Shown in pieces: positions 1-64,000 of a DNA stretch of 64,000 bases; the stretch's first letter is position 1, and each line of letters begins with the position of its first letter. Source of the stretch: a virus (lineage: Duplodnaviria > Heunggongvirae > Uroviricota > Caudoviricetes); IMG/VR virus record IMGVR_UViG_2671180724_000008; one strand, written 5' to 3'. A model generated the notes under the pieces. That model saw only the letters and a list, made by a program, of their open reading frames with translations. It was not told where the DNA came from and did no database searches. A program made the translations under genes and the position numbers.

Positions 1-1
1 T

Positions 2-265
2 GGCGCAAAAATCTGGGCCGGTCCATTAATGCGAACAGGTGATGTAAGAATTTACAACGCAAAAACTGAGACGTTCGAGGATGTGTTAGGCGAATATGGG
101 ATGGGAAAAGAAACCGGCTTTTTGCCGTGGAACAGAGGATTGTTACTTGATCCAGAATTAAGCTCTTGGTTTCCAAATAAGGTGCAAGTTAACGTTGAGA
201 AATTTATCGTACTTATCATCTCCCGCAAAACAAGAACCCCAGTTGGTTTATATCTAAAAGATTAA
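2..265 (+). CDS. Hypothetical protein, C-terminal part of a gene starting upstream of the window
   Basis: Frame open from position 2 with no upstream stop; followed by hairpin plus T-run at 267-294. Confidence 0.35.
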   Translation, partial: GAKIWAGPLMRTGDVRIYNAKTETFEDVLGEYGMGKETGFLPWNRGLLLDPELSSWFPNKVQVNVEKFIVLIISRKTRTPVGLYLKD

Positions 266-266
266 C

Positions 267-294
267 AATTAGGCGACTTCTGTCGCCTTTTTTG
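267..294 (+). terminator. Rho-independent terminator (GGCGAC-ttct-GTCGCC then TTTTTT)
   Basis: GC hairpin followed by T-run directly after stop codon. Confidence 0.7.
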
Positions 295-390
295 TTAACA
301 GCCATTGATTCTCGCCTAAAAATTCTAAGGCAGCACCTACCATTTAACCTTTACACAGCAGCCGTAGGCATTTAGGCTATATCACATATA

Positions 391-409
391 AGAAAACAAG
401 TTGTTTCAG
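391..409. promoter_or_regulatory. Copy of recurring palindromic motif AGAAAACAAgTTGTTT upstream of parA
   Basis: Same motif recurs upstream of at least eight other genes in the window. Confidence 0.4.
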
Positions 410-441
410 ACAATAATAATAGACGCAAAGGGAACTCTCCA

Positions 442-1110
442 ATGACCAAGATCTTTGTGGTTGGCGGCACAAAGGGCGGGCCTGGCAAATCCACTGTTGC
501 CCAGCAAATTGCCGTTTGCCTGAAAGTCAAAAAGAAGAAGAAGGTTTATATCACTGATATAGATATTCAGCGCACGACAACAAGCTGGTGTGAAGACCGT
601 CGACAGAACGAAGACCTTGAGCTGATTCCTTTTGCCTACGTTCAGGATGACATCATTAAGCACCTAAAATCGCTTCAGGGTAGAGCTGAGTTTGTAGTGG
701 TAGATGCTGGTGGCTTTGACTCCGAAATTCAGCGACAAGCGATGCTGATGGCCGACGTTATCATTATCCCGCTGCGTCCTAAGCGTCGTGATTTGAAATC
801 TCTGCGTGACATCGATCCTATTATCGACAATGTTCGTAATGTAAACGATAAAGTGAAGGTCCGCGCGGTCATGAACCAGTGCCCGGCTTTGCCATCACAA
901 GTGTCTCGCATTCTGGCGGCTAAAGAGATTGTCGAGACGTTTGGCATCGAGTCTGCGCCAGTCAATCTATATAACCGCAACGTCTACGATGATGCGGAAG
1001 AGTCTGGTCGTTCTATCTTCGAAATGACCGGTAGCGAGCGCGACAAAAAGGCTGAAGCCGAGTTTGAAGAATTTGTAGATTATCTGTTGAGTCTGGAGGA
1101 AGAAGAATAA
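442..1110 (+). CDS. parA: ParA/MinD-family partition ATPase
   Basis: Deviant Walker A GGTKGGPGKST near N-terminus; about 220 aa; followed by overlapping small gene. Confidence 0.8.
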   Translation: MTKIFVVGGTKGGPGKSTVAQQIAVCLKVKKKKKVYITDIDIQRTTTSWCEDRRQNEDLELIPFAYVQDDIIKHLKSLQGRAEFVVVDAGGFDSEIQRQAMLMADVIIIPLRPKRRDLKSLRDIDPIIDNVRNVNDKVKVRAVMNQCPALPSQVSRILAAKEIVETFGIESAPVNLYNRNVYDDAEESGRSIFEMTGSERDKKAEAEFEEFVDYLLSLEEEE

Positions 1111-1469
1111 TGTCCATGAAAATGGGTGACCTAGCAAAGCGCAAAGAGCCTGATGCACCGGCTAAGAACACAACTCCTTTGCGCCAACCAGTCAGACCAC
1201 AGGGACGCCCGACTCGTGGCAAAGAGAAAATTAAGAGCCGCACGATGTCACTGGAGGACGAATACTTCGAACTGCTGGAGATGATGAAGTTCATCCCTCG
1301 TTTCGAGAAATTCACCCGTTCAGACGTGATTCGCGCAGCCATTTTCCATCTGGCAGAGAAGTCACCGCAGGAAATCGAGGACATCGTGAAACTTAACGAG
1401 GCGATCACAGCTGCCGATGTCACGATGCGTACCGATGAAATCAAACGAGAGTTGATGAAAAAAGGTTAA
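1110..1469 (+). CDS. Small basic protein, putative partition partner (ParB/ParG-like centromere-binding protein)
   Basis: Start overlaps parA stop (ATGA-type coupling); basic N-terminus; no motif recognised. Confidence 0.4.
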   Translation: MSMKMGDLAKRKEPDAPAKNTTPLRQPVRPQGRPTRGKEKIKSRTMSLEDEYFELLEMMKFIPRFEKFTRSDVIRAAIFHLAEKSPQEIEDIVKLNEAITAADVTMRTDEIKRELMKKG

Positions 1470-1521: not shown

Positions 1522-2289
1522 TTATGCCGCGCTAACACTATGTTCAGTCCTAACCACCCCAACCTTCACAAAAGGGCTACCGTAGCTTGGTGGCTTCTTG
1601 ATTAATTTGCCTACATACAGTTTTCTAATATGCTCATCGGCTATTCTGCCAACAAATTCATAACGTTTTGTGTCGGGGCCAAGAGCTATATCCCTTGTAA
1701 AGTACTGCTGAGAACCGGCTTTGACCCAGCATTCAATCCGATAAACTTCCATTATCAGCCCACCATATGTAGCGTAGGCATATTTGAGATTCTCGTCTCT
1801 TGGAACCTTTGCCCATACGCCACGCGTAGCTTCATATAATGCCAGAGCGGACATTCCTGACTTGTAGGTGCTGTTTAGCAGGAAGGCAAGACCGGCGTGC
1901 TCAGGAGCAATTTCAGTTTCCTCTTGCAGCACTAAGTGATGGTAGGCGTCCAGTGATATTCTGCCCATCATGGAACCACTTCCTCGTACCTTATTCGTAA
2001 GCTCTCCGACCCCCATAAGGTCGATGCATGTCGCCTCAACAAGTTTGGCTGTGGTTTCATCCATACCATGACGAAGTATATCTATGCCTAATTTTTTATT
2101 AGCCAAAAGTTCTTTGATCCGCATGGATTTGGGAGAGTCATCGGGATACTTGATGTGATCGAGACAACGAGTCGATTTGCCTTTTCCTATGTAAAACGGT
2201 CTTTTCATCTTGTCTTCTGTATCATAGAGACAGTAAACATAGTATTTAGCCTTATCCAATGATCTCGCGTATACCGATAAATCGTCCAT
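1522..2289 (-). CDS. GIY-YIG nuclease-domain protein, possible free-standing homing endonuclease
   Basis: N-terminal YVYCLYD...PFYIGKGK...R...H matches the GIY-YIG signature; encoded opposite to the surrounding genes. Confidence 0.55.
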   Translation of the reverse strand: MDDLSVYARSLDKAKYYVYCLYDTEDKMKRPFYIGKGKSTRCLDHIKYPDDSPKSMRIKELLANKKLGIDILRHGMDETTAKLVEATCIDLMGVGELTNKVRGSGSMMGRISLDAYHHLVLQEETEIAPEHAGLAFLLNSTYKSGMSALALYEATRGVWAKVPRDENLKYAYATYGGLIMEVYRIECWVKAGSQQYFTRDIALGPDTKRYEFVGRIADEHIRKLYVGKLIKKPPSYGSPFVKVGVVRTEHSVSAA

Positions 2290-3355: not shown

Positions 3356-4696
3356 ATGACCGAACTTTGCCATACAGGACGCGGGCTGTCCGAAGAGTTT
3401 GATGAAGATTTCCAGAACAGACTGACGGCATATTTTTGTCGTGATCACGAGTTTCTTACTCGTGCGGGAGATCTGGTTGTGCCTAGCCAATTTGCCAATG
3501 CGGCCAATGCCATATTGGTTAATATGGTTTCGGGCTATTACCGTATGTACAAGAGCGCGCCCTCTTCATCTGCAATTCTGGATATGCTTAAGCGTGCGAA
3601 ACGCGATAAGACTATCCGTGAGGAACTATTCGCCGATGTTGTTGCTGCGTTTAAGCGCATCCTTGCAGAAAAATTGTCCGATACCTCGTACATGGTTGAC
3701 CAGGTATCAACCTTCGCAAAAAGCGTAGCGTTTGATGATGCTCTGATTAAGGCTGCTGAACTGAAAGAGAAGGGCGACTTTCAGGGGGCGATGGCAATCA
3801 TGGCCAAGGTTCAGCAGATTGGATCGAATGAAGCGACCGGAATCTATGACTACTACACCTCCGCAAGTGAGCGATTGAAAGCGCGTGAATATGAGGCTTC
3901 AGAGGAGTATGTACCAAACAGTATTACAACTGGACTCCCTCTTCTCGATAGGTTGCTGTACCAAAAAGGCTGGGCAAAGCGCGAAATGGTGCTCTTCATG
4001 GGGTTCGCTAAATCCGGTAAATCGACCGCAATGGGTGAGTTTTCCATAAACGCAACGCTTGCCGGCTACAATGTTCTGTATCTCTCGCTGGAGGTTCACA
4101 CCAACATTTTGTCCGACCGCTTTGATGCAAGATTGTCGGAGACGGAAATGTCCAAGCTGGTGGAACGGCGCGATGAAGTTCATCGTAAGTTGGCAGAGTT
4201 GGGAGCCACGAAGGGGATTGGTAGTTTGTGGGTTGTTGAGCGTCCGTCAGGAAGTATGTCACCGGCCGATCTGGACCGTATGCTTAACAGTATGAAAGCC
4301 AATGGCATGGTGCCTGACATGGTTGTTGTCGACTACGCAGATTTGATGCGTGCCAGTTATGACCTTCGTGATGATCGCGCCAATATTCGTAGTATCTACA
4401 CCGATTTACGTGCTCTTTATGACAAACATAACGTTGCTGGGATCACGGCATCGCAGACAAACCGTGAAGGTGGCGCGTCAGAAGTTGCCACAATGATGCA
4501 CGCTGCCGACAACATCGAAAAAGTACGTATTGCTGACCTGGTAATAACGATCAACAAAACCGAAGAAGAAGAAGCGAAAGGAGAGGCTCGTCTCTACTTT
4601 GCTGGTTCGCGTAACCAGCAGGGAGGGATCAGCATTCGCGTTAAACAAAACCTCGAACAAATGCGCTTCATTGAGCGAATCTTAGACGTTACCTAA
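3356..4696 (+). CDS. DnaB-family replicative DNA helicase
   Basis: RecA-fold Walker A GFAKSGKST and Walker B-like MVVVDYADLM; conserved AAAGGAAAgCACATG initiation context. Confidence 0.8.
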   Translation: MTELCHTGRGLSEEFDEDFQNRLTAYFCRDHEFLTRAGDLVVPSQFANAANAILVNMVSGYYRMYKSAPSSSAILDMLKRAKRDKTIREELFADVVAAFKRILAEKLSDTSYMVDQVSTFAKSVAFDDALIKAAELKEKGDFQGAMAIMAKVQQIGSNEATGIYDYYTSASERLKAREYEASEEYVPNSITTGLPLLDRLLYQKGWAKREMVLFMGFAKSGKSTAMGEFSINATLAGYNVLYLSLEVHTNILSDRFDARLSETEMSKLVERRDEVHRKLAELGATKGIGSLWVVERPSGSMSPADLDRMLNSMKANGMVPDMVVVDYADLMRASYDLRDDRANIRSIYTDLRALYDKHNVAGITASQTNREGGASEVATMMHAADNIEKVRIADLVITINKTEEEEAKGEARLYFAGSRNQQGGISIRVKQNLEQMRFIERILDVT

Positions 4697-4701: not shown

Positions 4702-4726
4702 AAGCGTGGAGAACACCTCCACGCTT
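4702..4726. other. Hairpin AAGCGTGGAG-aacac-CTCCACGCTT in the helicase-primase intergenic region
   Basis: Perfect 10-bp stem; T-run lies on the minus-strand side, so not a plus-strand terminator. Confidence 0.4.
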
Positions 4727-4777
4727 GATTCATTGGTGAAACAACTTTTCTTTTGCCAAACCACAAAAGAAAAACAC

Positions 4778-5959
4778 ATGAGCCTTTATGTTATATCAAC
4801 ATTTAGGTTGGTCACAATATTGCCTGTTAAAAGTGGAATTATCGTGAGCGAGCTGAAAGAGCTAATTACCGAATTAGATTTTGAACAATGGTTGGACACT
4901 GAAGGTATCGTTTATCGACGTGGAGGTGTGAGTGCTCGCGGTCGTGAAGTGAATATCAAGGAGTGTCCGGTATGCGGCAGCTCCAACTGGAAGGTATATT
5001 TCAATCTGACCAGTGGCGTCGGCAAATGCTTCGCTGGTGATCATCCCGAAGAGATTCAGTTCAATAAGCTGGTCTTCCTCAAGCACTACAGCGGTAAATC
5101 ACGACGACAGTTCGAGGAATATGTGCAGAACGCTCTTCTTTCCCAGGGGTGGGCACCAAAGAAAGAAGAGATAGTGCTTGCAAGCACAGTCGAGTTAGAG
5201 GGACCACTTGCACTCCCTCGTCATTACGAGCTTCCTATAGATGGCCGTCTTCCAGACTATCTGGTTGAACGAAACATATCACCTGAAATGGCAAAGTATT
5301 TTGACCTACGATACTGCGTCGAAGGCAAGCACGCTTATGTAGATCCGTATACAGATCAGGTAAAAGGACAGATATTCGATATGCGAGTACTGATACCGGT
5401 TTACGATCTGGATGGGGTAATGAAGACATTTCAGGGACGAGACATTACCGGTACAGCAGACCGCCGCTACCTCTTTCCTATGCAGCTTCCAGCTTCAGGT
5501 AAGTTTCTCTACAACGGCCATAATGCGGTCGGCAAACAGACTGTAGTTGTCTGTGAGGGGGCGTTCGATGTTATGGGGGTTAAACGAGCTATTTTTGATG
5601 AAGAAACATTACGTGATTACGTGGAACCGATAGGAACGTTCGGGATGCATCTATCTGGTAACACCACTCAGGATGCAGAAGATCAGTTAGGCGCGTTCCT
5701 GACGCTCAAGGCGCGTGGGTTACGTAATGTGATCATGATGTGGGATAGTGAAAAGCAAGCTATACGCAACACTATGGCCGCAGCCAGGCGACTGACCAGT
5801 ATCGGTCTTAATGTCAAAGTTGCGTGTTTGGGTGAGGAAGGACTCGACCCAGGCGGTGCAACGCCAGAACAAATTATCAAAGCCTATTATCGGGCAAAAC
5901 CGTATACCAAACAGTTGGAGTTGCAAAGCAAGGTTTTGGGCATTAAGGCTCTATCGTAA
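4778..5959 (+). CDS. DNA primase (zinc-ribbon plus TOPRIM, DnaG-like)
   Basis: CPVCGSS...GKC zinc motif and VVVCEGAFDVMG TOPRIM-like motif; start set at 4778 by the conserved AAAACACATG context. Confidence 0.75.
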   Translation: MSLYVISTFRLVTILPVKSGIIVSELKELITELDFEQWLDTEGIVYRRGGVSARGREVNIKECPVCGSSNWKVYFNLTSGVGKCFAGDHPEEIQFNKLVFLKHYSGKSRRQFEEYVQNALLSQGWAPKKEEIVLASTVELEGPLALPRHYELPIDGRLPDYLVERNISPEMAKYFDLRYCVEGKHAYVDPYTDQVKGQIFDMRVLIPVYDLDGVMKTFQGRDITGTADRRYLFPMQLPASGKFLYNGHNAVGKQTVVVCEGAFDVMGVKRAIFDEETLRDYVEPIGTFGMHLSGNTTQDAEDQLGAFLTLKARGLRNVIMMWDSEKQAIRNTMAAARRLTSIGLNVKVACLGEEGLDPGGATPEQIIKAYYRAKPYTKQLELQSKVLGIKALS

Positions 5960-6872: not shown

Positions 6873-7355
6873 ATGGCGGTAGTTGTGAAAGCTGATTTGT
6901 CAAAAATCCCCTCTATTTCAGGAAATAATGGTTATTCACTTCGTTGTGAGGAAGTAAAGATAAACGGTGAGTCGGCATATTGCAGCTACTCCGTTTGCCA
7001 GCACACCATTCTTGCCTTCAAAGAAAACCGTCTTCCTCGAACTTCATTCCAGTCGTGCGCAACCACTATCAAAGCAGGCAAATGCAAGGCGTTAAAAATG
7101 ATGGTTGAAGAGATTCGTAAAGGAGAATCTCTGTATTTCGAAGATATGACCGCGCTCATTAAGGAGGTTGAAGAACGGAATAAACAAGCCAGAACTATAA
7201 AACGAAAACGTGACAGTGTAACGATTAATAGCATGGTTAAGAAGAGCACCACATCACAAACAGCGATCACTGACGTGTATGCGGCGTTGCTTGAAGAAAC
7301 AACAAAAGAAACACATGAGCAAATCGATCAACATATGGAGGCAAAACAACAATGA
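6873..7355 (+). CDS. Hypothetical protein
   Basis: 160-aa ORF; stop overlaps the ligase start. Confidence 0.45.
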   Translation: MAVVVKADLSKIPSISGNNGYSLRCEEVKINGESAYCSYSVCQHTILAFKENRLPRTSFQSCATTIKAGKCKALKMMVEEIRKGESLYFEDMTALIKEVEERNKQARTIKRKRDSVTINSMVKKSTTSQTAITDVYAALLEETTKETHEQIDQHMEAKQQ

Positions 7356-8674
7356 AAAAGTTGATCGCACTTAAGCATAAGCTGGACGAAATGAAAGCTA
7401 TGGGAACCAATGCAAAAAAAGAGGCATTGGCCAACATGGATGACTTCGAGCAAAGCATGGTTTCATTGATGCTCAACCCTTTCATCCGTTTTGGGGTAAA
7501 GAAATACAAAGTGGCAGAGCCGCTTAGTGAGTCCGTCCCAAGTGACGAAAAAGCCATTGATATACTGAATAAGCTGGCCTCTCGCGAGCTGACGGGGAAC
7601 GCAGCAATAGCTGCTGTTGAGTCTATCGTGGCGTCAATGTGCGCCGATGGGCAGGACGTGTTCCGTCGTTTCCTCTTAAAAGATCCGAAAGCTGGCGTTG
7701 GGATTAGCCTATGCAACAAGGTTTTTGAAAATCCCATTCCGAAATTCGAGGTGCAGCTGGCGTCACCGTATAAAGAAAAAGGCGACAAATACCCCTTCAA
7801 GCCAAATCCTAAAGCAAAATGGCCGATGATTGGCAGCCTTAAGCTCGATGGTTTGCGAGTAATTTGCGAGGTTATTGTTGACGAGGAAGAGGTGAACTTC
7901 CTTTCTCGTACTGGTAATCCAATCACGTCTCTCGATCACCTAAAGCCAGCCATGCTCGAATTAGGCAAACTTTCAGGCCACAAACACATCTTCTTCGATG
8001 GTGAAGGAACAGCCGGTTCATTTAACAAGTCCGTATCTGCATTGCGCAAAAAGAACGTGCAGGCAATTGGCGCTATTTATCATGTTTTCGACTTCTTCCT
8101 ACCGGAATGGCGGGCACAGGCTAAATCCAAAGAGTATGCAAAGACAGGTATGAAGCTGAAAGAGCGCCTGGCTATTCTCGTGGCGTTGTTCAAAAACGAT
8201 CGCAGTGAAGACTACGCGCAAGACATTCACCTACATCCGTTCTACATCATCCATAGCCACGAAGACTTCATCGAACGCTTCATGAAACGCCTGGACGATA
8301 ACGAAGAAGGGGAGATGGGCAAAGATCCGAACTCTGTTTACGAGTTTAAACGTACCCGCAGCTGGTGGAAGTTAAAAGACGAAGATTCAGAAGATGGTGA
8401 AATTATCGACTTTGAGCCGGGCGACCCGGACTCTGGTTTTGCCAACACACTTGGAAAAATTGTTATTCGTCTTGAAAACGGCGTCATCGTTCGTGCGAGC
8501 GGCATTAAGCATAAATATCTGGACGAGATCTGGAACAACAAAGAGAAGTACCGTGGTCGTATTGTCGAGGTTCATTGTCACGAGAAAACACCGGACGGCA
8601 GCTTACGCCACCCACGACTGAAATGGCCGCGTTGCTTACGCGATACAGAAGATCGAATCGGAGATAAAGAATGA
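7352..8674 (+). CDS. ATP-dependent DNA ligase
   Basis: Adenylation motif I KLDGLR and WWKLK-type motif V. Confidence 0.8.
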   Translation: MKKLIALKHKLDEMKAMGTNAKKEALANMDDFEQSMVSLMLNPFIRFGVKKYKVAEPLSESVPSDEKAIDILNKLASRELTGNAAIAAVESIVASMCADGQDVFRRFLLKDPKAGVGISLCNKVFENPIPKFEVQLASPYKEKGDKYPFKPNPKAKWPMIGSLKLDGLRVICEVIVDEEEVNFLSRTGNPITSLDHLKPAMLELGKLSGHKHIFFDGEGTAGSFNKSVSALRKKNVQAIGAIYHVFDFFLPEWRAQAKSKEYAKTGMKLKERLAILVALFKNDRSEDYAQDIHLHPFYIIHSHEDFIERFMKRLDDNEEGEMGKDPNSVYEFKRTRSWWKLKDEDSEDGEIIDFEPGDPDSGFANTLGKIVIRLENGVIVRASGIKHKYLDEIWNNKEKYRGRIVEVHCHEKTPDGSLRHPRLKWPRCLRDTEDRIGDKE

Positions 8675-9997: not shown

Positions 9998-10263
9998 AAG
10001 ACGGGATTGTTGTGTAGGTTTAACCACTGTTGCCATTGGTGCCTGTTTTCACAACAAATGATTCCATACATCACATTGTATAAATTACAAAGTAGGTGCT
10101 GTCCTCAGAAACATCATCTACTTAAAGATTTTGCCTTCTACTATTGAGCGAAGTCGAAAGCGTCTGGCACTAACGAAAAGTGCAAGTAGCGGTGCGTTTC
10201 CTGGCAGAAACTAAACCGTCGCGATTGGCACTGTTGAGTAATAAATACTGGCAGTGCTGAATT

Positions 10264-10339
10264 GATGGTGTAGCTCAGCGGTAGAGCAGTTGGCTGTTAA
10301 CCAACTGGTCGGTGGTTCGAATCCACCCACCATCGCCAA
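10264..10339 (+). tRNA. tRNA-Asn (anticodon GUU)
   Basis: Cloverleaf by hand: acceptor GATGGTG/CACCATC, anticodon stem GTTGG/CCAAC with loop CTGTTAA, T-arm GGTGG-TTCGAAT-CCACC, 3' CCA. Confidence 0.8.
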
Positions 10340-10343
10340 TTTA

Positions 10344-10430
10344 GGGGAGTTAGTCCGTAGAGGTAGCGGTGTAGACTGTAAATCTACTGTCATTGCGACT
10401 CGGGTGGTTCGACTCCATCACTCCCCACCA
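10344..10430 (+). tRNA. tRNA-Tyr (anticodon GUA), long variable arm
   Basis: Acceptor GGGGAGT/ACTCCCC, anticodon stem GTAGA/TCTAC with loop CTGTAAA, T-loop TTCGACT, 3' CCA. Confidence 0.7.
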
Positions 10431-10434
10431 AATT

Positions 10435-10510
10435 GCCGGTTTAGCTCAGTTGGTAGAGCGCCTGCCTTGTAAGCAGGATGTCAGCGGTTCGTGTCCGTTA
10501 ACCGGCACCA
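10435..10510 (+). tRNA. tRNA-Thr (anticodon UGU)
   Basis: Acceptor GCCGGTT/AACCGGC, D-arm GCTC-AGTTGGTA-GAGC, anticodon loop CTTGTAA, T-arm AGCGG-TTCGTGT-CCGTT, 3' CCA. Confidence 0.8.
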
Positions 10511-10518
10511 ACATAATA

Positions 10519-10598
10519 TTGAGAACATTGGCGTAACGGGGTCATATCCCAATCTATGAATAAATGTTACGTTGCCGCGTGACAACCAGTGTTCTCAA
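10519..10598. repeat. Stem-enclosed element (TTGAGAACATTGG / CCAGTGTTCTCAA) with nested CGTAAC/GTTACG stem
   Basis: 13-bp inverted repeat; same CACAnnGTTGAG stem family in inverted orientation. Confidence 0.5.
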
Positions 10599-54711: not shown

Positions 54712-54772
54712 TAGGTAAATACTTACTTAATTTGTGTAAGAATGTAGTAACTAAACGATAAGAGAAAAACAC

Positions 54773-55477
54773 ATGAACAACCTCCAGTTAGAGCATTTTA
54801 ACGTCACAGGCCATTCTGATTTTCCTTTCAAGTTTACATTGAAAGGTTATGCAGAGGATGCGGTAGGCCAGATCATTATTGATAAAGGCATCGTTAAGTT
54901 TGAGGGGAATTTTGATGAATCCGCGAAAACATTCATAGACTTCGTTGCCAAACGTTGGAGCGAGCAATGGAAAGACCTGGAAAAGCGCGCCAATGAGTTT
55001 GATCGGTTCATGGATGCAATGGATACAGCAAAAGAGGCTCTGGCTGCCGGGACTCCGTTAGATCTGGAGTCACTTTTCAACGGCGAAGTGGCCTCTGCAA
55101 TGTTCGCCACCATGTTCGCGGGTGAGTTCGTCCGCAGCGGTGCCAAAAACTACCTTGAGCTGGATTACAACGTCCCTGCAATTGGCGATTTCGTCGTTAC
55201 CATCCAACGCAAAGAAGGTAAGACGCCAGGTGAACGCGTCGCAGAGCTTGAGGCCGTTGTGGATCAGCGTAACGGAGAGTGTGACCGTTTGATCAACGAG
55301 CTTCATGCACTTCGGGAAGAAAGAATATGCGCGGGTAGCAATACACGTAATGCAGCGGATATCTACTTCCAGTTAGTTGAGGAATGCCAGATTCCACCAG
55401 GTGGCTCTCTTGTCGATTACGTAAGACATTTAATGGCGGAAGTTAGCTCCAGCCATAAAGATGGTGAGGTGCGCTGA
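54773..55477 (+). CDS. Hypothetical protein
   Basis: 234-aa ORF. Confidence 0.5.
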   Translation: MNNLQLEHFNVTGHSDFPFKFTLKGYAEDAVGQIIIDKGIVKFEGNFDESAKTFIDFVAKRWSEQWKDLEKRANEFDRFMDAMDTAKEALAAGTPLDLESLFNGEVASAMFATMFAGEFVRSGAKNYLELDYNVPAIGDFVVTIQRKEGKTPGERVAELEAVVDQRNGECDRLINELHALREERICAGSNTRNAADIYFQLVEECQIPPGGSLVDYVRHLMAEVSSSHKDGEVR

Positions 55478-55857
55478 TGTTTGGCATTGACGCACAGCGT
55501 ATAGCCGCTTTTGCAAAAAGCCCTCTTGATAATCCCTTGTCTCGTAGTGAGCAAATGGAGCTGGCAAGGCTTTTTCTTCATATTCAAAAACAGTCAGACG
55601 TTTTCAATAACATGCCTGATCAACCTATTCTGGATGGTCACATCCAGATGGTCATTAACAGTCATGAGAAAGGCTGGGCTGCAATCGTCCCCAGCACAAT
55701 TACATACAAGTTGGCGAAAGAGGTTCAAGAGTTTCGAAAAGCCAGTGTCGAATCGGAGTCTACCAAAGCCGCAATAAACACTCTTATTCGCATGGGATTC
55801 ACATGGAACGGTGGAGCCTACTGGCAAGCACCTCACCCCATTTTATCCGGCAATTAG
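55477..55857 (+). CDS. Hypothetical protein
   Basis: 126-aa ORF coupled to upstream gene. Confidence 0.45.
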   Translation: MFGIDAQRIAAFAKSPLDNPLSRSEQMELARLFLHIQKQSDVFNNMPDQPILDGHIQMVINSHEKGWAAIVPSTITYKLAKEVQEFRKASVESESTKAAINTLIRMGFTWNGGAYWQAPHPILSGN

Positions 55858-55976
55858 ACGCTACAAATCCTTCTGCGTGAATAAATAAAGGCCATAAGTT
55901 GTGGCCTTAAATAAATTGTTTTCTGCCTTTTCTTATTTGTGAAAATAACCACAACTAGAAAACAACGGAGTTAAGA

Positions 55977-56618
55977 ATGTCTAGTATTTCCGAAGCTCAT
56001 ATGTTCGCCGCTGGCGCTCATGGTGGCGTTGGTCAGAAAAGAAAATATACCGGCGAAGACTACATCAACCACCCGGTTGCTGTCCGAGAGATTGTTGCAT
56101 TGCATGACGGAACCGTGGAGATGCAAATCGCGGCGCTTCTGCATGATGTGGTCGAAGACACCCATGTAACCATAGAGATGGTTCGTGATCACTTCGGTGA
56201 GCGCGTAGCTGAAATGGTTCAGGCTCTGACCAACATTGCAAGGCCAGAAGACGGCAATCGAATACAGCGTTTCATCATCAATGTCCGGGAGCTGGAGCAA
56301 AATCTCGACATGCAGACGCGCATGATCAAGCTGGCTGACCTGCTCGACAATACCTCTTCTATCGTGAGTCGCGATCCCGAGTTTTCAGCTGTCTACCTCG
56401 CAGAGAAAGAACTGATGCTGGACGTACTCTTTCACGGCAAAGAGATTGGTGCCAACGCTGATGTTGTCGAGTACATGGAGAGGAAAGGTATAGAACACCC
56501 GTTGCTATTAAGTGCAATGGCGAAAGTCACTGAAGGTATTGCGCTTCTGAAACCGGTACACATCAAACGTTATGAAAAACACAAATCGCTGATCTGGAGC
56601 GCGTGGGAGGCTGCATGA
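55977..56618 (+). CDS. HD-domain protein resembling the (p)ppGpp hydrolase domain of SpoT/RelA (small alarmone hydrolase-like)
   Basis: AHGGVGQKRKYTGEDYINHPVAV and AALLHDVVEDT match the SpoT/Mesh1 HD motifs as recalled. Confidence 0.6.
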   Translation: MSSISEAHMFAAGAHGGVGQKRKYTGEDYINHPVAVREIVALHDGTVEMQIAALLHDVVEDTHVTIEMVRDHFGERVAEMVQALTNIARPEDGNRIQRFIINVRELEQNLDMQTRMIKLADLLDNTSSIVSRDPEFSAVYLAEKELMLDVLFHGKEIGANADVVEYMERKGIEHPLLLSAMAKVTEGIALLKPVHIKRYEKHKSLIWSAWEAA

Positions 56619-57157
56619 AGGTCGAAAAAATAGATGTTCTTTCCTTTGTGCTGACGGATCTGGAACGCCTCGATCCGGTTCGAGTGATGATTGAAAACTA
56701 CGAACCTGGTAAGGGAAGAATCACCATCACCTGCTACGGAAAAGCCTGGACAGCGGCTTGGTTTGCTATGGGCGGTGATGATGTGCAGACGTTCATTAAG
56801 CGAGTTAGCAACGACTATCTAATCGACAATTTCGACCCTCAACTGCTAAGCACGGTCGACGATGACAACGATGCAAATCTGCTTTTCGTGAAGTCAGAAA
56901 TCATAAAGTTACGAAGAGAGAGAGAAATCGACGCCGTACAGGCTCGCGAAATGTGGGACGAGGCGGAAAACGCTGATGACGTAAAAGAAAGCTGCTGTTG
57001 TTTCGGCGTCGGTAACAAACTGCTGAATCTCTTTGGTGATGATCCGTGGTATGCCGACTGGCCAACTGTACCAAACCCGAAATACCAGTATCTGGAACGC
57101 ATTGTGAACGCGGTACGTGAAGGGCTGAAAGAGTTAGACAAGTTAGAGGCATTGTAA
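56603..57157 (+). CDS. Hypothetical protein
   Basis: 184-aa ORF. Confidence 0.45.
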   Translation: MGGCMKVEKIDVLSFVLTDLERLDPVRVMIENYEPGKGRITITCYGKAWTAAWFAMGGDDVQTFIKRVSNDYLIDNFDPQLLSTVDDDNDANLLFVKSEIIKLRREREIDAVQAREMWDEAENADDVKESCCCFGVGNKLLNLFGDDPWYADWPTVPNPKYQYLERIVNAVREGLKELDKLEAL

Positions 57158-57612
57158 TGAGAGAGAAAATCAAGAACCCGGTCGTCGTATTGTATAAACG
57201 GGAAACCAGCGATTCTTATGCGGTATCCATCACTGATGGAAGCCAGAACATGCACGATGGCCTGCTAATGGCTTCAGTGTCTCCCGATGAGGCAGACAAC
57301 TCTTTTGCCGTTTTCGCTATGGTTGGTTACTACATGGCTGCCGAAATTGAGAAGTTGCGGGCGCAGAGAGATGCATTAGCGGCGGAGAATGCAGCCCTGA
57401 AAGAATCTGAGCGAGCATTCGATGAGATGTGTGCCGAGGAACACGGAGATAATTGGGTTAGCGAATTAACGGAGACTCCAGCCACCGATGCTTTTCTGGC
57501 TGAAGTACGTGCGCAGGGCGTGGAGATGTTTGCTGAGTGCGCATACACATTTGAACATCATGATCACGCAGTAGCTTTTGCCGCTGAGCTTCGTAAAGGA
57601 AATAAACAGTGA
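57157..57612 (+). CDS. Hypothetical protein
   Basis: 151-aa ORF. Confidence 0.45.
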   Translation: MREKIKNPVVVLYKRETSDSYAVSITDGSQNMHDGLLMASVSPDEADNSFAVFAMVGYYMAAEIEKLRAQRDALAAENAALKESERAFDEMCAEEHGDNWVSELTETPATDAFLAEVRAQGVEMFAECAYTFEHHDHAVAFAAELRKGNKQ

Positions 57613-58145
57613 ATGAGATTTACTACCTGACGTTACGTGAACGTTATTTACCAAAACCAGCGCCTAAATGCTCTGTTTGTGGCGAGGAAATGTCAATACA
57701 GCGCATATCTGGTGCACATGTTGTTTATGCCTGTTCCGGTGAGGGTGATGACGGATATTTTAAGATAGGGCGTACTTTTGCAGACGAACATTATGAAAAA
57801 TCACGCGTAACAGTAGTTGATGATTGTGATCCCGATGTGATTGCACTGCTGGACGAACTGGATAAAAGACAGCAACACATCCGACGTCTTGAGCAGGAGA
57901 ACGTAGAGATGGCCCTAACGCTTGAGAAACTGCGTGTTGAGCTGGAGACCGTTAAACAGCGGGAAAAGGATCTGTTTATGGAAAATGTTCGACTTAAGTC
58001 AGGTATAGCAGGTCTGATACACCTCGGTATTCGATATGCGGATGTCGAAGTCATGAAAATAGCTGGAGATGCCCAGCTTTCTACTCCATGCACTGACAGC
58101 ATCATAAACAGCATTGCAGCAGGCATTCGCATTACAGCAGAGTGA
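57609..58145 (+). CDS. Hypothetical protein with N-terminal zinc-ribbon and coiled coil
   Basis: CSVCGEE...YACSGEG motif. Confidence 0.45.
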   Translation: MNEIYYLTLRERYLPKPAPKCSVCGEEMSIQRISGAHVVYACSGEGDDGYFKIGRTFADEHYEKSRVTVVDDCDPDVIALLDELDKRQQHIRRLEQENVEMALTLEKLRVELETVKQREKDLFMENVRLKSGIAGLIHLGIRYADVEVMKIAGDAQLSTPCTDSIINSIAAGIRITAE

Positions 58146-58348
58146 GTGATATGGATAAAAATACCCCTGCTTACTGGAGTTTATCACTTGATACCGAATG
58201 CCCAAAATGCGGTCACAATTTCGATCTGCTTTGTGATGCTGATTTTTGGGAGTTTTCGGGAGCAAAACAGGCGTGTGAAGAAATAGAAGGTTACGAAACA
58301 TGCTGTCCAGAATGCAACCATGAATTTAAAACTGATTTTGTGTATTGA
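58142..58348 (+). CDS. Small zinc-ribbon protein
   Basis: CPKCGH ... CCPECNH four-Cys pattern. Confidence 0.4.
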   Translation: MSDMDKNTPAYWSLSLDTECPKCGHNFDLLCDADFWEFSGAKQACEEIEGYETCCPECNHEFKTDFVY

Positions 58349-58358
58349 AGCATAGCAC

Positions 58359-58880
58359 ATGACCGCCTTTACCAAAGAACAACTAATTGATCATATTAAT
58401 GATCGCAAAGATGTCCGTCAGAGAATGTTGGATACCGCGACGGTTTCTTCTGGATTCCGAGAATATCTTGAAAGAGAACTTGCCACCGATCAGATTGCTC
58501 TGGCGTCGCTGGAAGCTGAACCTGTCCTGTATCAGTCCTGCACTCGCCCCACCTGGAATAGCGGTGTTCCGTGGACGGAATGGAAAGAACGTAGTCGTGA
58601 GGGCTACGAAGACGATTTGCGCTTTACAGACACGCCTGATCATGCCGGTTGGATAAACAAATGTCGAAAACTATATACCACTCCGCCAGCGCCACTGCTA
58701 CCTGATGGACTGGTTAAAGCAGTGCGCTTCTATGAACAGGTTAAGCGTGAAAATCCGCCAGTCGAAACCGGAGCATGGAAAGACGCGGTTGACTGGGTGC
58801 TTAAAGAGGCTTTCCAGGCTGTATCAGTGTTGGAAAGCAGCAGAGAACACGAAGTTATTAGCCAGCAGGAGAAGGCATGA
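58359..58880 (+). CDS. Hypothetical protein, paralog family member A
   Basis: N-terminus MTAFTKEQLIDH shared with the 59075 ORF. Confidence 0.45.
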   Translation: MTAFTKEQLIDHINDRKDVRQRMLDTATVSSGFREYLERELATDQIALASLEAEPVLYQSCTRPTWNSGVPWTEWKERSREGYEDDLRFTDTPDHAGWINKCRKLYTTPPAPLLPDGLVKAVRFYEQVKRENPPVETGAWKDAVDWVLKEAFQAVSVLESSREHEVISQQEKA

Positions 58881-59065
58881 GACAACTTTACACCATTGTT
58901 ATCGCATTTGTTTTTGGTTTTGGCGGCATTTGCGTCGGTGAGAGTGCTGGCTATAACCGTGGATTAAGTGAAGGAGTTGCTATCAGCAAGGGGGATAAGT
59001 GGGATTGTGCTTACTCATACGTGACTGGATTCCTTATGTGTGATCGAACCCCAAAATATAAGTAG
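58877..59065 (+). CDS. Small membrane protein
   Basis: 62 aa with N-terminal hydrophobic helix. Confidence 0.3.
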   Translation: MRQLYTIVIAFVFGFGGICVGESAGYNRGLSEGVAISKGDKWDCAYSYVTGFLMCDRTPKYK

Positions 59066-59074
59066 AGGCTATCA

Positions 59075-59656
59075 ATGACCACCTTTACCAAAGAACAGTT
59101 AATCTCCCATGCACGCGAAAGCGTTAGTTATCTGGAAAACTTGAAAGGACGTGTTAGCAAAGAAGGTGCGGACTGCAAAGTTGTTCTTGAGATGGTTGAA
59201 CAAGATCTAAAACTGGCACGAATTGCACTGTCCTCGCTTGAGGCAAAACCAATAGGTGCATTCCACATTGCAGAACAGCAAGTTGACGGTACAAGTGACT
59301 ACCTCAAGGATGGAGAATGGCCTATTGATAATGGAATTATTGAGGTCTACGCCGCTCCACCCGTTCCAGTAGTACCGGAAGAAAAACTAATGCCGAACCC
59401 TCTTAGCAGATATGCGGTTGATGCGGTTGCAGCTATTGCAGAGGTGAGAGGCTGGAACGCCTGTCGTGCTGCTATGCTTCAGAAGAATGCTAATAACACA
59501 CCAGAATGCGACAACCTAGTTACAGAGTTAGCAATGTGGGTTAAACGGTTAGTCAGCCAATTGAAGAAAGCGAAGCCGGACTGTGACTTACCAGATAAGG
59601 CAATGAACTACCTAGAGCAGCACAGATTGGTGGGCGTGGAGGATGCCCTACGATGA
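59075..59656 (+). CDS. Hypothetical protein, paralog family member B
   Basis: MTTFTKEQLISH and LSSLEAKP motifs parallel member A. Confidence 0.45.
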   Translation: MTTFTKEQLISHARESVSYLENLKGRVSKEGADCKVVLEMVEQDLKLARIALSSLEAKPIGAFHIAEQQVDGTSDYLKDGEWPIDNGIIEVYAAPPVPVVPEEKLMPNPLSRYAVDAVAAIAEVRGWNACRAAMLQKNANNTPECDNLVTELAMWVKRLVSQLKKAKPDCDLPDKAMNYLEQHRLVGVEDALR

Positions 59657-60240
59657 TTGAAATAACAAAAGAAGAACTAACACAGGCAACAAAGGAGTAC
59701 GGGAAAAAGCACATCGCGCATCGTATGGCGAATGTGTTACTGGCCTTGTCTGAACAAAAGCCATCTGCGTTTGTAATGAAAGATGATTTGGCCGATCCGG
59801 CAATTGTTTCGACTCCGGCATATTTAGATATTGAGGATGCGGAACAAAAAACGATTGGGGATATTGTCGCGCTTTATGCCGATCCCTTTCCTGTCATCGG
59901 TGACACTACTGCTCTTGTGGACGATATTTTAAACATTCTCGCGCTTCTTGAGGCTGGCGATTGGTCAGAACATTGCACTAAAACGGAGTTAGGCGGTCGG
60001 CTTGAAAGAGAGATTACACAACTTATTGGTGATGCCCAAAATGATTTGTCACCTGAGCATCTCCCCTGCGATGTAGTCCTTGTGCCAGGGATGAGGATAC
60101 ACGAAGGCGTCAGAACGAAAACATTATTAACCGCATTACAGAGAAGAGCCGAACTAAGCTCGCGGATAAAGTTGATGCCATCCAAAATATTTGATGTCGT
60201 CAAATTTACGCCATCACAACATACTGAGAGAGATAAATGA
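59653..60240 (+). CDS. Hypothetical protein, possibly a distant third paralog
   Basis: N-terminal IEITKEELTQA weakly resembles members A and B. Confidence 0.45.
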   Translation: MIEITKEELTQATKEYGKKHIAHRMANVLLALSEQKPSAFVMKDDLADPAIVSTPAYLDIEDAEQKTIGDIVALYADPFPVIGDTTALVDDILNILALLEAGDWSEHCTKTELGGRLEREITQLIGDAQNDLSPEHLPCDVVLVPGMRIHEGVRTKTLLTALQRRAELSSRIKLMPSKIFDVVKFTPSQHTERDK

Positions 60241-60863
60241 GCACGGTAGCGAAAGATCTCACAGAAGATATTCTCAATGAAATTATTGCTGGTGCGAATA
60301 CCTCGCTTGAGCAACTTCTTGCGTTAGCACTGAGAGCCGAACGTCGAGACAGAAATCGTTTTTATGAGCGATTACCAGGGAAACGACCAGATAGATCAGA
60401 TGAAGATGGTTGCGATATAGACTACATGGAGCCTTCAGAGATTTATCAACTTGGTAAAGATGACGGCTGGAACGCTTATCACGATGCTGTGATGAAGTTG
60501 GATGAAAAAGTTAAACCTCTTTCTCGACCGGTAGATCACGGTTTCCGCGATAACTGCGAATGCTCTAGTTGCCAGACCACGGCCCGTATTTGTTCCGAAT
60601 TGACAGATAAATCCAGCCTAATCTACGAAGTTAATGTAGGCGGTAATACATGGGTCGAATGCACAAGAGCTGCATACGTAAGAGCAAAAGACAAGGGTGA
60701 ATTAACCAGAGTTGTTGCCCATCACCCAAATAATGAGCTTAAAGATCACCAAATTCGAGAACTGGTGAACGAGTTGAGGGATATTGCGGTTCAGTACCAC
60801 GGAACGCAGCAATTGCGGGAGAAGATTGCCAGAGCAGTGAACAACTCAGTCCGTAAAAAATAA
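60237..60863 (+). CDS. Hypothetical protein
   Basis: 208-aa ORF; last phage-like gene before the non-coding junction region. Confidence 0.45.
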   Translation: MSTVAKDLTEDILNEIIAGANTSLEQLLALALRAERRDRNRFYERLPGKRPDRSDEDGCDIDYMEPSEIYQLGKDDGWNAYHDAVMKLDEKVKPLSRPVDHGFRDNCECSSCQTTARICSELTDKSSLIYEVNVGGNTWVECTRAAYVRAKDKGELTRVVAHHPNNELKDHQIRELVNELRDIAVQYHGTQQLREKIARAVNNSVRKK

Positions 60864-61076
60864 GCAATAGTACGATAAAGAGGCCCCATGCTCTTGATGG
60901 GGCCTGTAGCAACTAGCGTTATGGACGCTGGTTTACGTACTCAATGATCGCTTTGATAATCGCGAACATCGGCGGCACGATTTTGAACAGTAAGTTAACC
61001 ATAACAGGCCTCACTTAGTTTTATCGCGCCTAGCTGCAAATACCTTTGGGCTTGCCTTTGCAGTTGCAATATCTGT

Positions 61077-61096
61077 AGTCGCCAGATACTTACGGC
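61077..61096. repeat. 20-bp direct repeat AGTCGCCAGATACTTACGGC (copy 1)
   Basis: 19/20 identical copy at 61250-61269; each copy next to a short hairpin. Confidence 0.6.
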
Positions 61097-61249
61097 ACGA
61101 TTTCGAGTTAAGGTAAGGTTTTAGAGTCACCAAAAACCTGGACTTAAATCTTCTTTGAGAACAACGATGTTTAGTAAATGGTCATTATTACCTGGTATGA
61201 CCACTCAACGTTTCTTGATGAATCCAGTACATTCGGTTAATCTTAATTC

Positions 61250-61269
61250 AGTCGCCAGATACTTATGGC
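61250..61269. repeat. 20-bp direct repeat AGTCGCCAGATACTTATGGC (copy 2)
   Basis: See copy 1. Confidence 0.6.
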
Positions 61270-61302
61270 TCAGGAACAGAGCCGCAAACTCTGTTTCCTT
61301 TT

Positions 61303-61333
61303 AAAAAGCCCAGCCTAGTCAACTGGGCTTTTT
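61303..61333. terminator. Bidirectional rho-independent terminator (AAAAAGCCCAG ... CTGGGCTTTTT)
   Basis: 8-bp GC stem flanked by A-run and T-run. Confidence 0.75.
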
Positions 61334-61631
61334 AATGTCTATTTTTAACCCAATGAACCTTCAATACCGCAACATCAGTGTCTTGCGAATTAAGATAGTG
61401 TGTATAGGTTATACATGCAAGTGCATAACTCTGTGGATAACTCAGGAAGGAAAAAGTAGCTTCCGCGCAATTTAGGCCAGACAAGGCTTTCGCAAAAATC
61501 AACGGAGAGAAAAAAATTTGTTAAAAATAACGTTTGTTGGAATTGTATATATTTATGCCTTTCAATAGTTAGCATCTTATTAACATCTTTTTTAAGAGAT
61601 AGAGTTCAAAAATATATAGCTTCAACATATA

Positions 61632-61647
61632 CTGTATGCATATACAG
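61632..61647. promoter_or_regulatory. LexA (SOS) box CTGTATGCATATACAG upstream of the UmuD'-like gene
   Basis: Perfect CTGT-N8-ACAG within TACTGTATGCATATACAGTA, about 20 bp upstream of ATG 61666. Confidence 0.8.
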
Positions 61648-61665
61648 TATTAAGAGGCGAGTATT

Positions 61666-62055
61666 ATGGGCTTCCCTTCTCCTGCGGCGGATTATGCTGA
61701 GAGCCGTATTTCTCTTGATCAGCAGATAATTAGACATCCTTCAGCGACCTACTTCTTGAGGGCAGCTGATAGCCATCATCGTGAGGGAATATTGCAGGGT
61801 GCATTGCTGGTGGTCGATTCCTCACTCACTCCTGTTGATGGATCTCTTCTTGTATGTGCTCTGGATGGGGAATATCGCGTAAAAAGATACCGGAAGTATC
61901 CACGTCAGCATCTGGAGGATTTAAGAACTGGTAAGAAGGAAGCATTGCCAAAGGATGATGATGGATGCACGGGCAGCAATGCCGTGTTTGGTGTGATCAC
62001 TCACATTATCAACGACGCAAGAAGTGGCGAGTTTGATGATTGTCCTGTGATGTAG
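61666..62055 (+). CDS. UmuD'-like protein: UmuD homolog encoded without the N-terminal pro-peptide, starting at the residues that follow the UmuD self-cleavage site
   Basis: Begins MGFPSPAADY, colinear with UmuD after Cys24-Gly25; retains DS and VKR catalytic-region residues; comparable to P1 HumD as recalled. Confidence 0.8.
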   Translation: MGFPSPAADYAESRISLDQQIIRHPSATYFLRAADSHHREGILQGALLVVDSSLTPVDGSLLVCALDGEYRVKRYRKYPRQHLEDLRTGKKEALPKDDDGCTGSNAVFGVITHIINDARSGEFDDCPVM

Positions 62056-62092
62056 GAGAACTGTTTAGGTGGTGCATTGCACCACCTTTTTA

Positions 62093-63193
62093 TCACACTG
62101 CGCGGAATGCGATTTCGCCAGGTATTACTTCACCTTGCCAATACATTTGGGCAGCAACGCGATCTGCGAGGTCACGATAAATAGCCGTAAATTCGCTATC
62201 TGGACGACTAATAACGGTTGGTGTTCCGTTATCCAGATCCTCACGAAGAGAGATATGAAGTGGCATTTGGCCTAACAACTGCGTGTTGTATTTCTCGGCC
62301 AGTTTCTGTGCGCCACCGGTGCCAAAAATTGGCTCGTGATGACCGCAGTTACTGCAAATATGCACACTCATGTTTTCGACGATACCTAGTACCGGCACTT
62401 CGACTTTTTCGAACATCACAATGCCTTTCTTCGCATCGATCAGCGCGATGTCTTGCGGCGTAGTTACCACAACCGCACCAGTTACAGGAATGTTCTGCGC
62501 CAGCGTCAATTGAATATCACCAGTGCCCGGCGGCATATCGAGAACGAGATAGTCCAGATCAGGCCACAGTGTTTCCTGCAACATCTGCATCAGCGCCTTG
62601 CTGGCCATCGGTCCACGCCACACCATTGCATTGTCGTCGGTGACCAGATAACCAATAGAGTTGGTTGCCAGGCCATGAGACATGATAGGTGCCATGTGAG
62701 TACCGTCCGGTGAGGTTGGACGTTGGTTTTCCGCACCCAGCATGGTTGGAATTGATGGACCGTAGATATCGGCATCCAAAATACCAACTTTCGCACCTTC
62801 AGCAGCCAACGCCAGTGCCAAGTTTACTGCTGTGGACGATTTGCCTACACCGCCCTTGCCTGAGCTGACGGCGATGATGTTCTTAACGCCATTAATGCCT
62901 GGTTGGTTTTTGACGCGCTTAAGCGTGGCAATGTTGTACGACAGCTTCCAGTCGATAGCCTTTGCGCCAGTGATACGGAGCAGATCACCACTACATTGCT
63001 CTTTCAGGTCTTCAAAAGGCTTATTCCACACGAAAGGCATGATTAGTTCGACATGCAGTGTGTCATCCATCAACGCAACATGGTGTAACGCTTTAAGCGT
63101 AGTCAGGTTGTGCTTCAGGGTTGGGTGCTGAAAATTAGCCAGCGTACCGGCTACCATTGCTCTCAGGGCATCCGGCGATTTGGACTCGCTCAT
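62093..63193 (-). CDS. apbC: Fe-S cluster carrier ATPase Mrp/ApbC (host chromosomal)
   Basis: Near-identical over most of its length to enterobacterial Mrp as recalled (SGKGGVGKSSTAVNLA, CxxC motif); divergent from metG as in E. coli. Confidence 0.95.
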   Translation of the reverse strand: MSESKSPDALRAMVAGTLANFQHPTLKHNLTTLKALHHVALMDDTLHVELIMPFVWNKPFEDLKEQCSGDLLRITGAKAIDWKLSYNIATLKRVKNQPGINGVKNIIAVSSGKGGVGKSSTAVNLALALAAEGAKVGILDADIYGPSIPTMLGAENQRPTSPDGTHMAPIMSHGLATNSIGYLVTDDNAMVWRGPMASKALMQMLQETLWPDLDYLVLDMPPGTGDIQLTLAQNIPVTGAVVVTTPQDIALIDAKKGIVMFEKVEVPVLGIVENMSVHICSNCGHHEPIFGTGGAQKLAEKYNTQLLGQMPLHISLREDLDNGTPTVISRPDSEFTAIYRDLADRVAAQMYWQGEVIPGEIAFRAV

Positions 63194-63350
63194 CCCGTCT
63201 CCTTTATTTTAATTTGCGCAATTGTCGCCTTGTAGTGTACTCCAGCTACGACATTTAATCATTTATGAGAAATGCTGTTATCACATGGCAGACATAAGGC
63301 CATTTTGTTACTATCAAGCCCCTTTTCACTACAAAGAAGTAATGCCTACT

Positions 63351-64000
63351 ATGACCCAAGTCGCGAAGAAAATTCTGGTGACGTGCGCGCTGCCGTACGC
63401 TAACGGCTCAATCCACCTCGGCCATATGCTGGAGCACATCCAGGCTGATGTCTGGGTTCGTTACCAGCGAATGCGCGGCCACGAGGTTAATTTCATCTGT
63501 GCCGACGATGCCCACGGTACGCCGATCATGCTGAAAGCACAGCAGCTTGGTATCACACCGGAACAGATGATTGGCGAAATGAGCCAGGAACACCAGACTG
63601 ATTTCGCAGGCTTTAACATCAGCTATGACAACTATCACTCGACGCACAGCGAAGAGAACCGCCAGCTGTCTGAGCTTATCTATACTCGCCTGAAAGAGAA
63701 CGGTTTTATTAAAAACCGCACTATCTCTCAGTTGTACGACCCGGAAAAAGGCATGTTCCTGCCGGATCGTTTTGTGAAAGGCACCTGTCCGAAATGTAAA
63801 GCGCCAGATCAATACGGCGATAACTGTGAAGTTTGCGGCGCGACCTACAGCCCGACTGAACTGATTGAGCCGAAATCGGTAGTTTCTGGCGCTACGCCGG
63901 TAATGCGTGATTCTGAACACTTCTTCTTTGATCTGCCCTCTTTCAGCGAAATGTTGCAGGCATGGACCCGCAGCGGTGCGTTGCAGGAGCAGGTGGCAAA
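63351..64000 (+). CDS. metG: Methionyl-tRNA synthetase, 5' partial (runs off window end)
   Basis: N-terminus [35 protein letters not shown] with HIGH-type motif and zinc knuckle CPKC...CEVC, matching E. coli MetG. Confidence 0.95.

Follow-up and report, generated by a model that had tools for sequence, protein, structure and literature searches.

The apbC-metG gene pair of IMG/VR record IMGVR_UViG_2671180724_000008 is very probably cargo of an extrachromosomal SSU5-supergroup phage-plasmid

IMG/VR virus record IMGVR_UViG_2671180724_000008 carries a phage-plasmid module directly beside apbC (mrp) and metG, a divergent gene pair also present on Escherichia chromosomes, and this arrangement raises the question of whether the element is integrated in a host chromosome. 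A stretch of 64,000 nucleotides (nt) of this record, hereafter the window, was analyzed. A preliminary description had read mrp-metG as chromosomal genes contiguous with the module, implying chromosomal integration, a cointegrate, or an assembly artefact. The adjacency was confirmed, but the pair turned out to be a plasmid cargo cassette rather than chromosomal DNA. Our results indicate that the window very likely represents approximately 58% of an extrachromosomal phage-plasmid of the SSU5 supergroup, Escherichia/Shigella branch, in which apbC-metG is the element's own cargo and no junction is present. This arrangement is already known, as phage-plasmid-borne metG has been reported for pWPMR2, which a large survey placed in the SSU5 supergroup and found in Shigella sonnei and several Escherichia coli lineages (bioRxiv 10.1101/2025.09.12.675607).

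The SSU5-type identity proposed in the preliminary description, for which a BLAST comparison against SSU5 had been called for, was supported by a backbone match of 80.6% identity to SSU5 covering 62% of positions 1-25000, and by far closer E. coli relatives. Close relatives are pECOH89, Cyrano/pLF82, PhiR41_1, and pWPMR2-like elements. The E. coli/Shigella SSU5-like group (pECOH89, NC_023916.1; Cyrano/pLF82, OV696614.1; PhiR41_1, PV340561.1; pG749_2; and pWPMR2-like elements) showed 96-98% nucleotide identity to the window with collinear gene order over approximately 90% of it, and shared the humD-apbC-metG cassette, dfrA51, and the tRNA block, differing in small variable slots and in the RepA allele. 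The phage records Cyrano, PhiR41_1, and CMS-2020a matched at 96-97%, and about 200 non-mobilizable plasmid records of approximately 110 kb, including pECOH89, matched at 95-99%; their hosts were E. coli, E. albertii, and E. fergusonii, and close relatives were typed as replicon rep_cluster_488. The SSU5/pHCM2 group (likeness measured against SSU5) shares with the window the helicase, primase, ligase, CobT/CobS-like pair, DnaE, RepA family, and dfrA51. SSU5 was not among the phage records matching positions 60800-64000, and therefore appears to be without the apbC-metG cassette. Backbone similarity was accompanied by the plasmid replication and partition functions of the supergroup (RepA, iterons, and ParA).

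On the phage side of the family, Cyrano is reported to form siphovirus virions, on the basis of quantitative polymerase chain reaction and electron microscopy (PMC9928086), and the PhiR41_1 record is that of a phage whose given host is E. coli K-12. The plasmid pG749_2 (NZ_CP014490.1; complete, circular, 109,910 bp) is collinear with the window, and its remaining 46 kb beyond the window's counterpart contains terminase, portal, capsid, tape measure, and tail fibre genes. Among 5,426 complete E. coli genomes, the portal and terminase segment of pG749_2 was found at 248 places, all of them on plasmids, in 240 genomes, and the backbone at 52300-56500 lay on plasmids at 249 of 251 places. Chromosomal matches to positions 53000-61600 reached at most 9% coverage and consisted of lambdoid ead/Ea22 and DUF551 fragments. 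The extrachromosomal state is therefore established for the family, and for the window it is inferred from its plasmid-type alleles.

The cassette itself lies inside the element. In pG749_2, humD is followed by apbC and a 2,034-nt metG, after which come small hypothetical genes and the packaging and tail modules; the identical humD-apbC-metG order occurs in Cyrano, PhiR41_1, pEA26_1 (E. albertii), and pRHB19-C05_2 (E. fergusonii), with humD as the final phage-plasmid gene ahead of the cassette. Full-length metG (677 amino acids, aa) was present on these SSU5-like elements in five of five relatives examined, the window holding its first 650 nt. Positions 60800-64000 were covered to at least 80% by 100 E. 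coli records and matched at 95% identity or more by 223 records, and among the matches listed at that level every record was a plasmid of approximately 110 kb. E. coli chromosomes matched the same interval at approximately 87%, solely from the apbC stop codon onward. In the alignments, homology to chromosomes extended from the apbC stop codon to the metG stop codon (the metG side taken from sister plasmids), and neither yehE nor the DUF4132 gene, which flank the pair on the chromosome, was present beside the phage-plasmid cassette. The cassette thus has the same divergent pair as the chromosomal Escherichia apbC(mrp)-metG locus but is without its flanks. The hairpin terminator that separates humD from the convergent apbC was present in pG749_2 and missing from the E. 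coli chromosome. A promoter scan around the cassette gave no more matches than expected by chance. The window apbC was 97-98% identical to plasmid copies and 82-84% identical to any chromosome, and the 5' part of metG was 96-98.6% identical to phage-plasmid alleles and 93-95.5% identical to Escherichia chromosomes.

Several observations weigh against this interpretation. No packaging or structural genes were found within the 64-kb window, and it is assigned to the phage-plasmids through relatives with which it is collinear. Only the first 650 nt of metG lie in the window, which leaves the source record beyond position 64,000 out of view. The other two of the 251 matches to 52300-56500 fell in records labelled chromosome; as the portal/terminase query had no chromosomal match, they are probably partial homologies. 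Finally, the functional role of the cassette is known here through a secondary citation, in PMC12452169.

The two cargo genes differ in how far they have diverged. In a fixed-difference comparison of five phage-plasmid copies with eight Escherichia chromosomes, apbC (1,101 nt; 82-84% identity to Escherichia chromosomes) showed 81 fixed differences, a distance like that of Escherichia to Citrobacter, and metG (2,034 nt; 93-94.5%) showed 3, a distance like that between Escherichia species; polymorphism among phage-plasmids was higher in metG than in apbC. This discordant divergence suggests, from sequence comparison, a mosaic origin or a past exchange of metG with Escherichia chromosomes. A donor for apbC above 84% identity was not found when one genome per GTDB species was searched with ApbC and then compared at the nucleotide level. 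By its divergence, apbC looks like an old non-Escherichia allele, and metG, with few fixed differences and high polymorphism, like a member of the Escherichia allele pool. It is conceivable, though on balance rather unlikely, that metG repeatedly recombines with host metG, and that the cassette acts as a portable 2-kb homology patch permitting occasional Campbell-type integration or chromosome mobilisation. The sliding-window identity profile of metG contained stretches of 99-100%. Recent gene conversion of metG from host chromosomes was examined and rejected, the longest identical runs (143-188 nt) lying within those of chromosome-versus-chromosome controls (83-257 nt). Similarly, the E. albertii plasmid allele was no closer to the E. 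albertii chromosome, and host-tracking of metG was therefore rejected on both grounds, while older exchange may have occurred. Shared polymorphisms made up a similar proportion of sites in apbC (30 of 54) and in metG (98 of 164), and this measure is therefore uninformative on recombination.

A further alternative is that the cassette is a decaying passenger fragment without function, for which the unconserved apbC-proximal promoter region might be cited. The coding sequences, however, point the other way. Both open reading frames (ORFs) were intact in every copy examined, and the cassette was retained by almost the whole family. At the amino acid level, ApbC shares 95% identity with its E. coli counterpart, and the full methionyl-tRNA synthetase (MetRS) of pG749_2 shares 99% with that of E. 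coli. The ratio of nonsynonymous to synonymous divergence (dN/dS) was 0.022 for apbC, with a synonymous divergence (dS) of approximately 1.6, and 0.016-0.020 for metG, with a dS of approximately 0.25. The same MetRS protein (WP_001755492.1) occurs on plasmids of three host species. Such low ratios, together with the shared MetRS accession, indicate that both genes are kept by selection in the phage-plasmid, and, given the high dS of apbC, that purifying selection has acted for a long time. A phenotype has also been reported for phage-plasmid metG, as cited in PMC12452169. The cargo genes look functional, as judged from their sequences, and decay is very unlikely.

Integration of the phage-plasmid in a host chromosome beside mrp-metG, for example by Campbell-type recombination through metG homology, has some mechanistic appeal: the plasmid and chromosomal metG genes are approximately 93-95% identical over 2 kb and would offer a substrate for RecA-dependent recombination, the far side of the locus is unseen because the window ends within metG, and two chromosome-labelled matches exist. 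Nevertheless, the window apbC is the plasmid allele, and its metG part is nearest to plasmid alleles. A plasmid-specific terminator follows the apbC stop codon, exactly where chromosome homology ends, the yehE-side flank is absent, and all 248 portal/terminase copies lie outside chromosomes. Thus, neither chromosomal flanks on the visible side nor family members in chromosomes were detected, and we consider integration still less probable than decay.

Least probable of all is that the element is fused to another replicon as a cointegrate, or that plasmid and chromosomal contigs were wrongly joined in assembly: although some family-bearing records are outsized (155,864, 213,958, and 240,150 bp), so that cointegrates with other plasmids probably exist in the family, about 100 independent records that cover at least 80% of 60800-64000, namely closed plasmids of approximately 110 kb from many laboratories, share the same junction at 96-98% identity, and phage records show it as well. 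An artefact would carry the host's own apbC allele at about 100% identity to a chromosome, not the 82-84% observed. The outsized records are NZ_JBWQDP010000003.1 and NZ_JBWGHW010000003.1 (155,864 bp each), NZ_AP027577.1 (213,958 bp), and NZ_CP182204.1 (240,150 bp). The recurrence of one arrangement in hundreds of independent closed plasmids and phage genomes makes integration, cointegration, and mis-assembly very unlikely, and the three explanations offered in the preliminary description were accordingly abandoned in favour of a cargo cassette internal to circular plasmids and trimmed to two coding sequences.

How such an element would be maintained is indicated by its replicon. In P1, the oriR-repA-incA layout runs from DnaA boxes and a GATC cluster through five iterons and repA to an iteron array downstream. 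The window RepA showed 43.5% identity to P1 RepA over residues 72-349 (69% of the protein; E=6e-64, tblastn). A 21-nt iteron with the core ACCGCTGACAGCATA occurred on either side of repA, with eleven copies at 31495-32032 and five at 33142-33248. Reading along the minus strand, the origin consists of two DnaA-box-like sites (33366-33350), six GATC sites within approximately 65 bp (33344-33283), five tandem iterons (33248-33142), and two TGTCCACA DnaA-box-like sites (33130-33115), followed by repA and then the eleven iterons. Both hallmarks of a P1-type replicon, RepA homology and an origin layout with a second iteron array, are therefore present, in agreement with the replicon type originally suggested. 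In contrast to P1, the iterons are 21 nt long and of other sequence, and eleven rather than nine copies lie downstream; beyond RepA and the origin, humD, and the tRNA block, the window is unrelated to the P1 genome.

The five origin iterons and the two TGTCCACA sites fall in the first 40 codons of the annotated RepA ORF. Because the iterons overlap these codons, the true start is probably M41 (ATG at 33123), the residue at which two phage records begin RepA. RepA shared 98% identity with its PhiR41_1 counterpart, 84% with the proteins of Klebsiella SSU5-like elements, and only 48% with those of both SSU5 and Cyrano. As the Cyrano backbone is approximately 97% identical to the window, these values point to a replicon swap within the family.

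The element would thus be maintained by a P1/RepFIB-type iteron replicon, with RepA binding the five origin iterons near the DnaA boxes and the Dam (GATC) cluster, and the eleven downstream iterons would serve copy-number control by analogy with P1. The element also carries genes of its own for the replisome and for deoxynucleoside triphosphate supply.

The partition system resembles P1 less closely. A ParA was present, as the preliminary description had stated together with the P1-type replicon, but it is not of the P1 type. The P1 ParA is large, carries a DNA-binding helix-turn-helix (HTH) domain, and adjoins incA, whereas the window ParA has 222 aa with the ATPase domain only and lies 31 kb from repA. 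A ParB domain was not found by Pfam in the 119-aa partner ORF, so that none of the marks of type Ia partition (a large HTH-bearing ParA, a ParB, and a position beside incA) was observed. This small ATPase is nonetheless the likely partition protein. The tyrosine recombinase is more likely to act in plasmid multimer resolution than in integration.

Genes were called from the ORF listing with Pfam, NCBIfam, ARAGORN, Rfam, PADLOC, and a repeat search, and the features are summarized in Table 1. Every item of the gene list given earlier (DnaE, NrdAB, ThyA, dihydrofolate reductase (DHFR), ligase, RNase H, a CobS/CobT-like pair, tRNAs, RepA with iterons, and ParA) was recovered by Pfam, ARAGORN, or the repeat search.

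Table 1. Features of the window in order of position (PGAP, Prokaryotic Genome Annotation Pipeline; GC, guanine plus cytosine fraction)
Feature	Position	Strand	Basis
Small ParA-type partition ATPase, 222 aa	442-1110	+	Pfam MipZ/AAA_31/CbiA; NCBIfam ParA_partition 115.7 bits (cut-off 180)
Putative ParA partner ORF, 119 aa	1110-1469	+	No family match
PD-T4-3 type anti-phage defence gene (GIY-YIG)	1522-2289	-	PADLOC PD-T4-3 1.6e-23; Pfam LEM-3 GIY-YIG
DnaB-like helicase	3356-4696	+	Pfam DnaB_C; PGAP name on pG749_2 agrees
DnaG-like primase	4706-5959	+	Weak Pfam DNAG_N/Toprim_2; PGAP name on pG749_2 agrees
ATP-dependent DNA ligase	7352-8674	+	Pfam DNA_ligase_A_M
Cluster of four tRNAs	Asn, Tyr, Thr 10264-10510; Ser 11179-11265	+	ARAGORN; Rfam confirms three
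Variable low-GC ORF, 444 aa	11461-12795	-	GC 0.365; sub-threshold putAbiC Pfam match
Glutaredoxin	12938-13183	+	Pfam Glutaredoxin
Tyrosine recombinase	13394-14497	+	Pfam Phage_integrase
HTH regulator	14492-14878	-	Pfam HTH_19
CobT-like VWA protein	15441-17549	+	Pfam CobT, CobT_C
CobS-like AAA ATPase	17645-18880	+	Pfam AAA_5; TIGR01650 CobS 87 bits (below cut-off)
DnaE-type DNA polymerase III alpha	19061-22579	+	Pfam PHP, DNA_pol3_alpha, finger, and HHH_6 domains
gp32-like single-stranded DNA-binding protein, 5'-3' exonuclease, RecA	23254-26623	+	Pfam gp32, 5_3_exonuc_N, RecA
incA-like array, eleven iterons downstream of repA	31495-32032		Repeat search
RepA initiator, P1/RepFIB family, 404-aa annotated ORF	32029-33243	-	Pfam Rep3_N
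P1-oriR-like origin	33115-33366	-	Sequence read and repeat search
SbcD-like phosphoesterase	34344-35429	+	Pfam Metallophos
SbcC/Rad50-like ATPase	35659-37575	+	Pfam AAA_23, SMC_N
NrdA	38961-41276	+	Pfam
NrdB	41346-42524	+	Pfam
MazG-like protein	Inside nucleotide-metabolism block 38961-45634	+	Pfam
ThyA	43643-44746	+	Pfam
DHFR (DfrA51)	45158-45634	+	NCBIfam DfrA51 334.5 bits (cut-off 322)
Dam-type methyltransferase	48478-49071	+	Pfam Dam
RNase H	50016-50660	+	Pfam RNase_H
HumD (UmuD'-like S24 peptidase)	61666-62055	+	NCBIfam HumD equivalog 217.7 bits (cut-off 120)
Hairpin terminator between convergent humD and apbC	62067-62087	.	Terminator scan: 9-bp stem, then T-run
apbC/mrp, intact, 366 aa	62093-63193	-	NCBIfam ApbC equivalog 759 bits (cut-off 348)
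Divergent apbC/metG intergenic region	63194-63350	.	metG-proximal part ~85-93% conserved with Escherichia chromosomes; apbC-proximal part ~55%, not conserved
metG 5' part, 216 codons, cut by window end	63351-64000	+	Pfam tRNA-synt_1g; NCBIfam metG

The window DHFR was 100% identical to the pG749_2 protein. DfrA51 is a trimethoprim-resistance enzyme characterised from SSU5 (PMC12217456). The dfrA51 gene lies within the conserved nucleotide-metabolism block beside thyA and not in an integron. The RNase H of the window is intact, with 214 aa and an N-terminal extension of approximately 55 aa before the Pfam domain, and the pG749_2 copy was called frameshifted by PGAP. Additionally, a DUF4942 protein (53026-54711) has a C-terminal methyltransferase-like region at residues 394-523 (PADLOC mad2 and MTase_II) and is annotated as a DNA modification methylase in some relatives. 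The Rfam scan of the window revealed nothing besides tRNAs. PADLOC matches of the SbcC-like ATPase to LmuB and PbeC were not accepted as a defence system because the gene adjoins the SbcD-like nuclease in a conserved replication and recombination block; the LmuB-like match probably reflects the common SMC fold.

Variable slots were found at several places along the backbone. The slot at 1468-2397, which separates the parA pair from the helicase block, is occupied by the PD-T4-3 gene in the window, and pG749_2 and pEC00678_4 fill it with a 1,695-nt gene for a KAP-family P-loop NTPase. Further segments differing from pG749_2 were 10512-12925, 27840-29909, and 57360-59904. The last of these is a run of small lambdoid-type genes, some of them Ead/Ea22-like or DUF551-like in relatives. 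It varies more than any other part of the family and is the sole part matched in E. coli chromosomal prophages, at the low coverage given above. The 444-aa ORF adjoins the tRNA cluster and has different alleles in sister plasmids, the window allele being present in pEC00678_4 and not in pG749_2. It had no PADLOC or NCBIfam match and may be an uncharacterised defence or exclusion gene. The tRNA block (10260-11288) was 90-93% identical to the P1-like phages D6 and RCS47, and the humD block (61416-62055) showed 82-85% nucleotide identity to P1-group phage-plasmids (P1 humD). The likeness of both blocks to the P1 group (D6, RCS47, P1, and P7) indicates module exchange between the two phage-plasmid groups.

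Taken together, the apbC-metG pair would have been captured from an enterobacterial chromosome, trimmed to two coding sequences and their divergent promoter region, and afterwards inherited with the phage-plasmid under strong purifying selection, the plasmid-specific terminator presumably insulating the cassette from humD. Since the replicon is multicopy (approximately 5.5 copies per cell as measured for Cyrano; PMC9928086), the cassette may provide extra MetRS and ApbC dosage. According to PMC12452169, which cites Tam et al. (2024), expression of the phage-plasmid metG gives rise to a bacterial sub-population with enhanced antimicrobial survival, and this sub-population is predisposed to gain cephalosporin resistance. 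Relatives of the element carry blaCTX-M-15.

These results show that a gene pair resembling host DNA at the margin of a mobile element does not constitute evidence of integration where the element carries that pair as its own cargo, and a false lead is thereby removed. The element is medically relevant yet already described, combining trimethoprim resistance (dfrA51), a defence gene, and the metG cassette. Only the unequal divergence of apbC and metG might repay population-scale recombination analysis. For the biology of the family, the metG cassette carried by these phage-plasmids has been linked to antimicrobial survival in epidemic S. sonnei.

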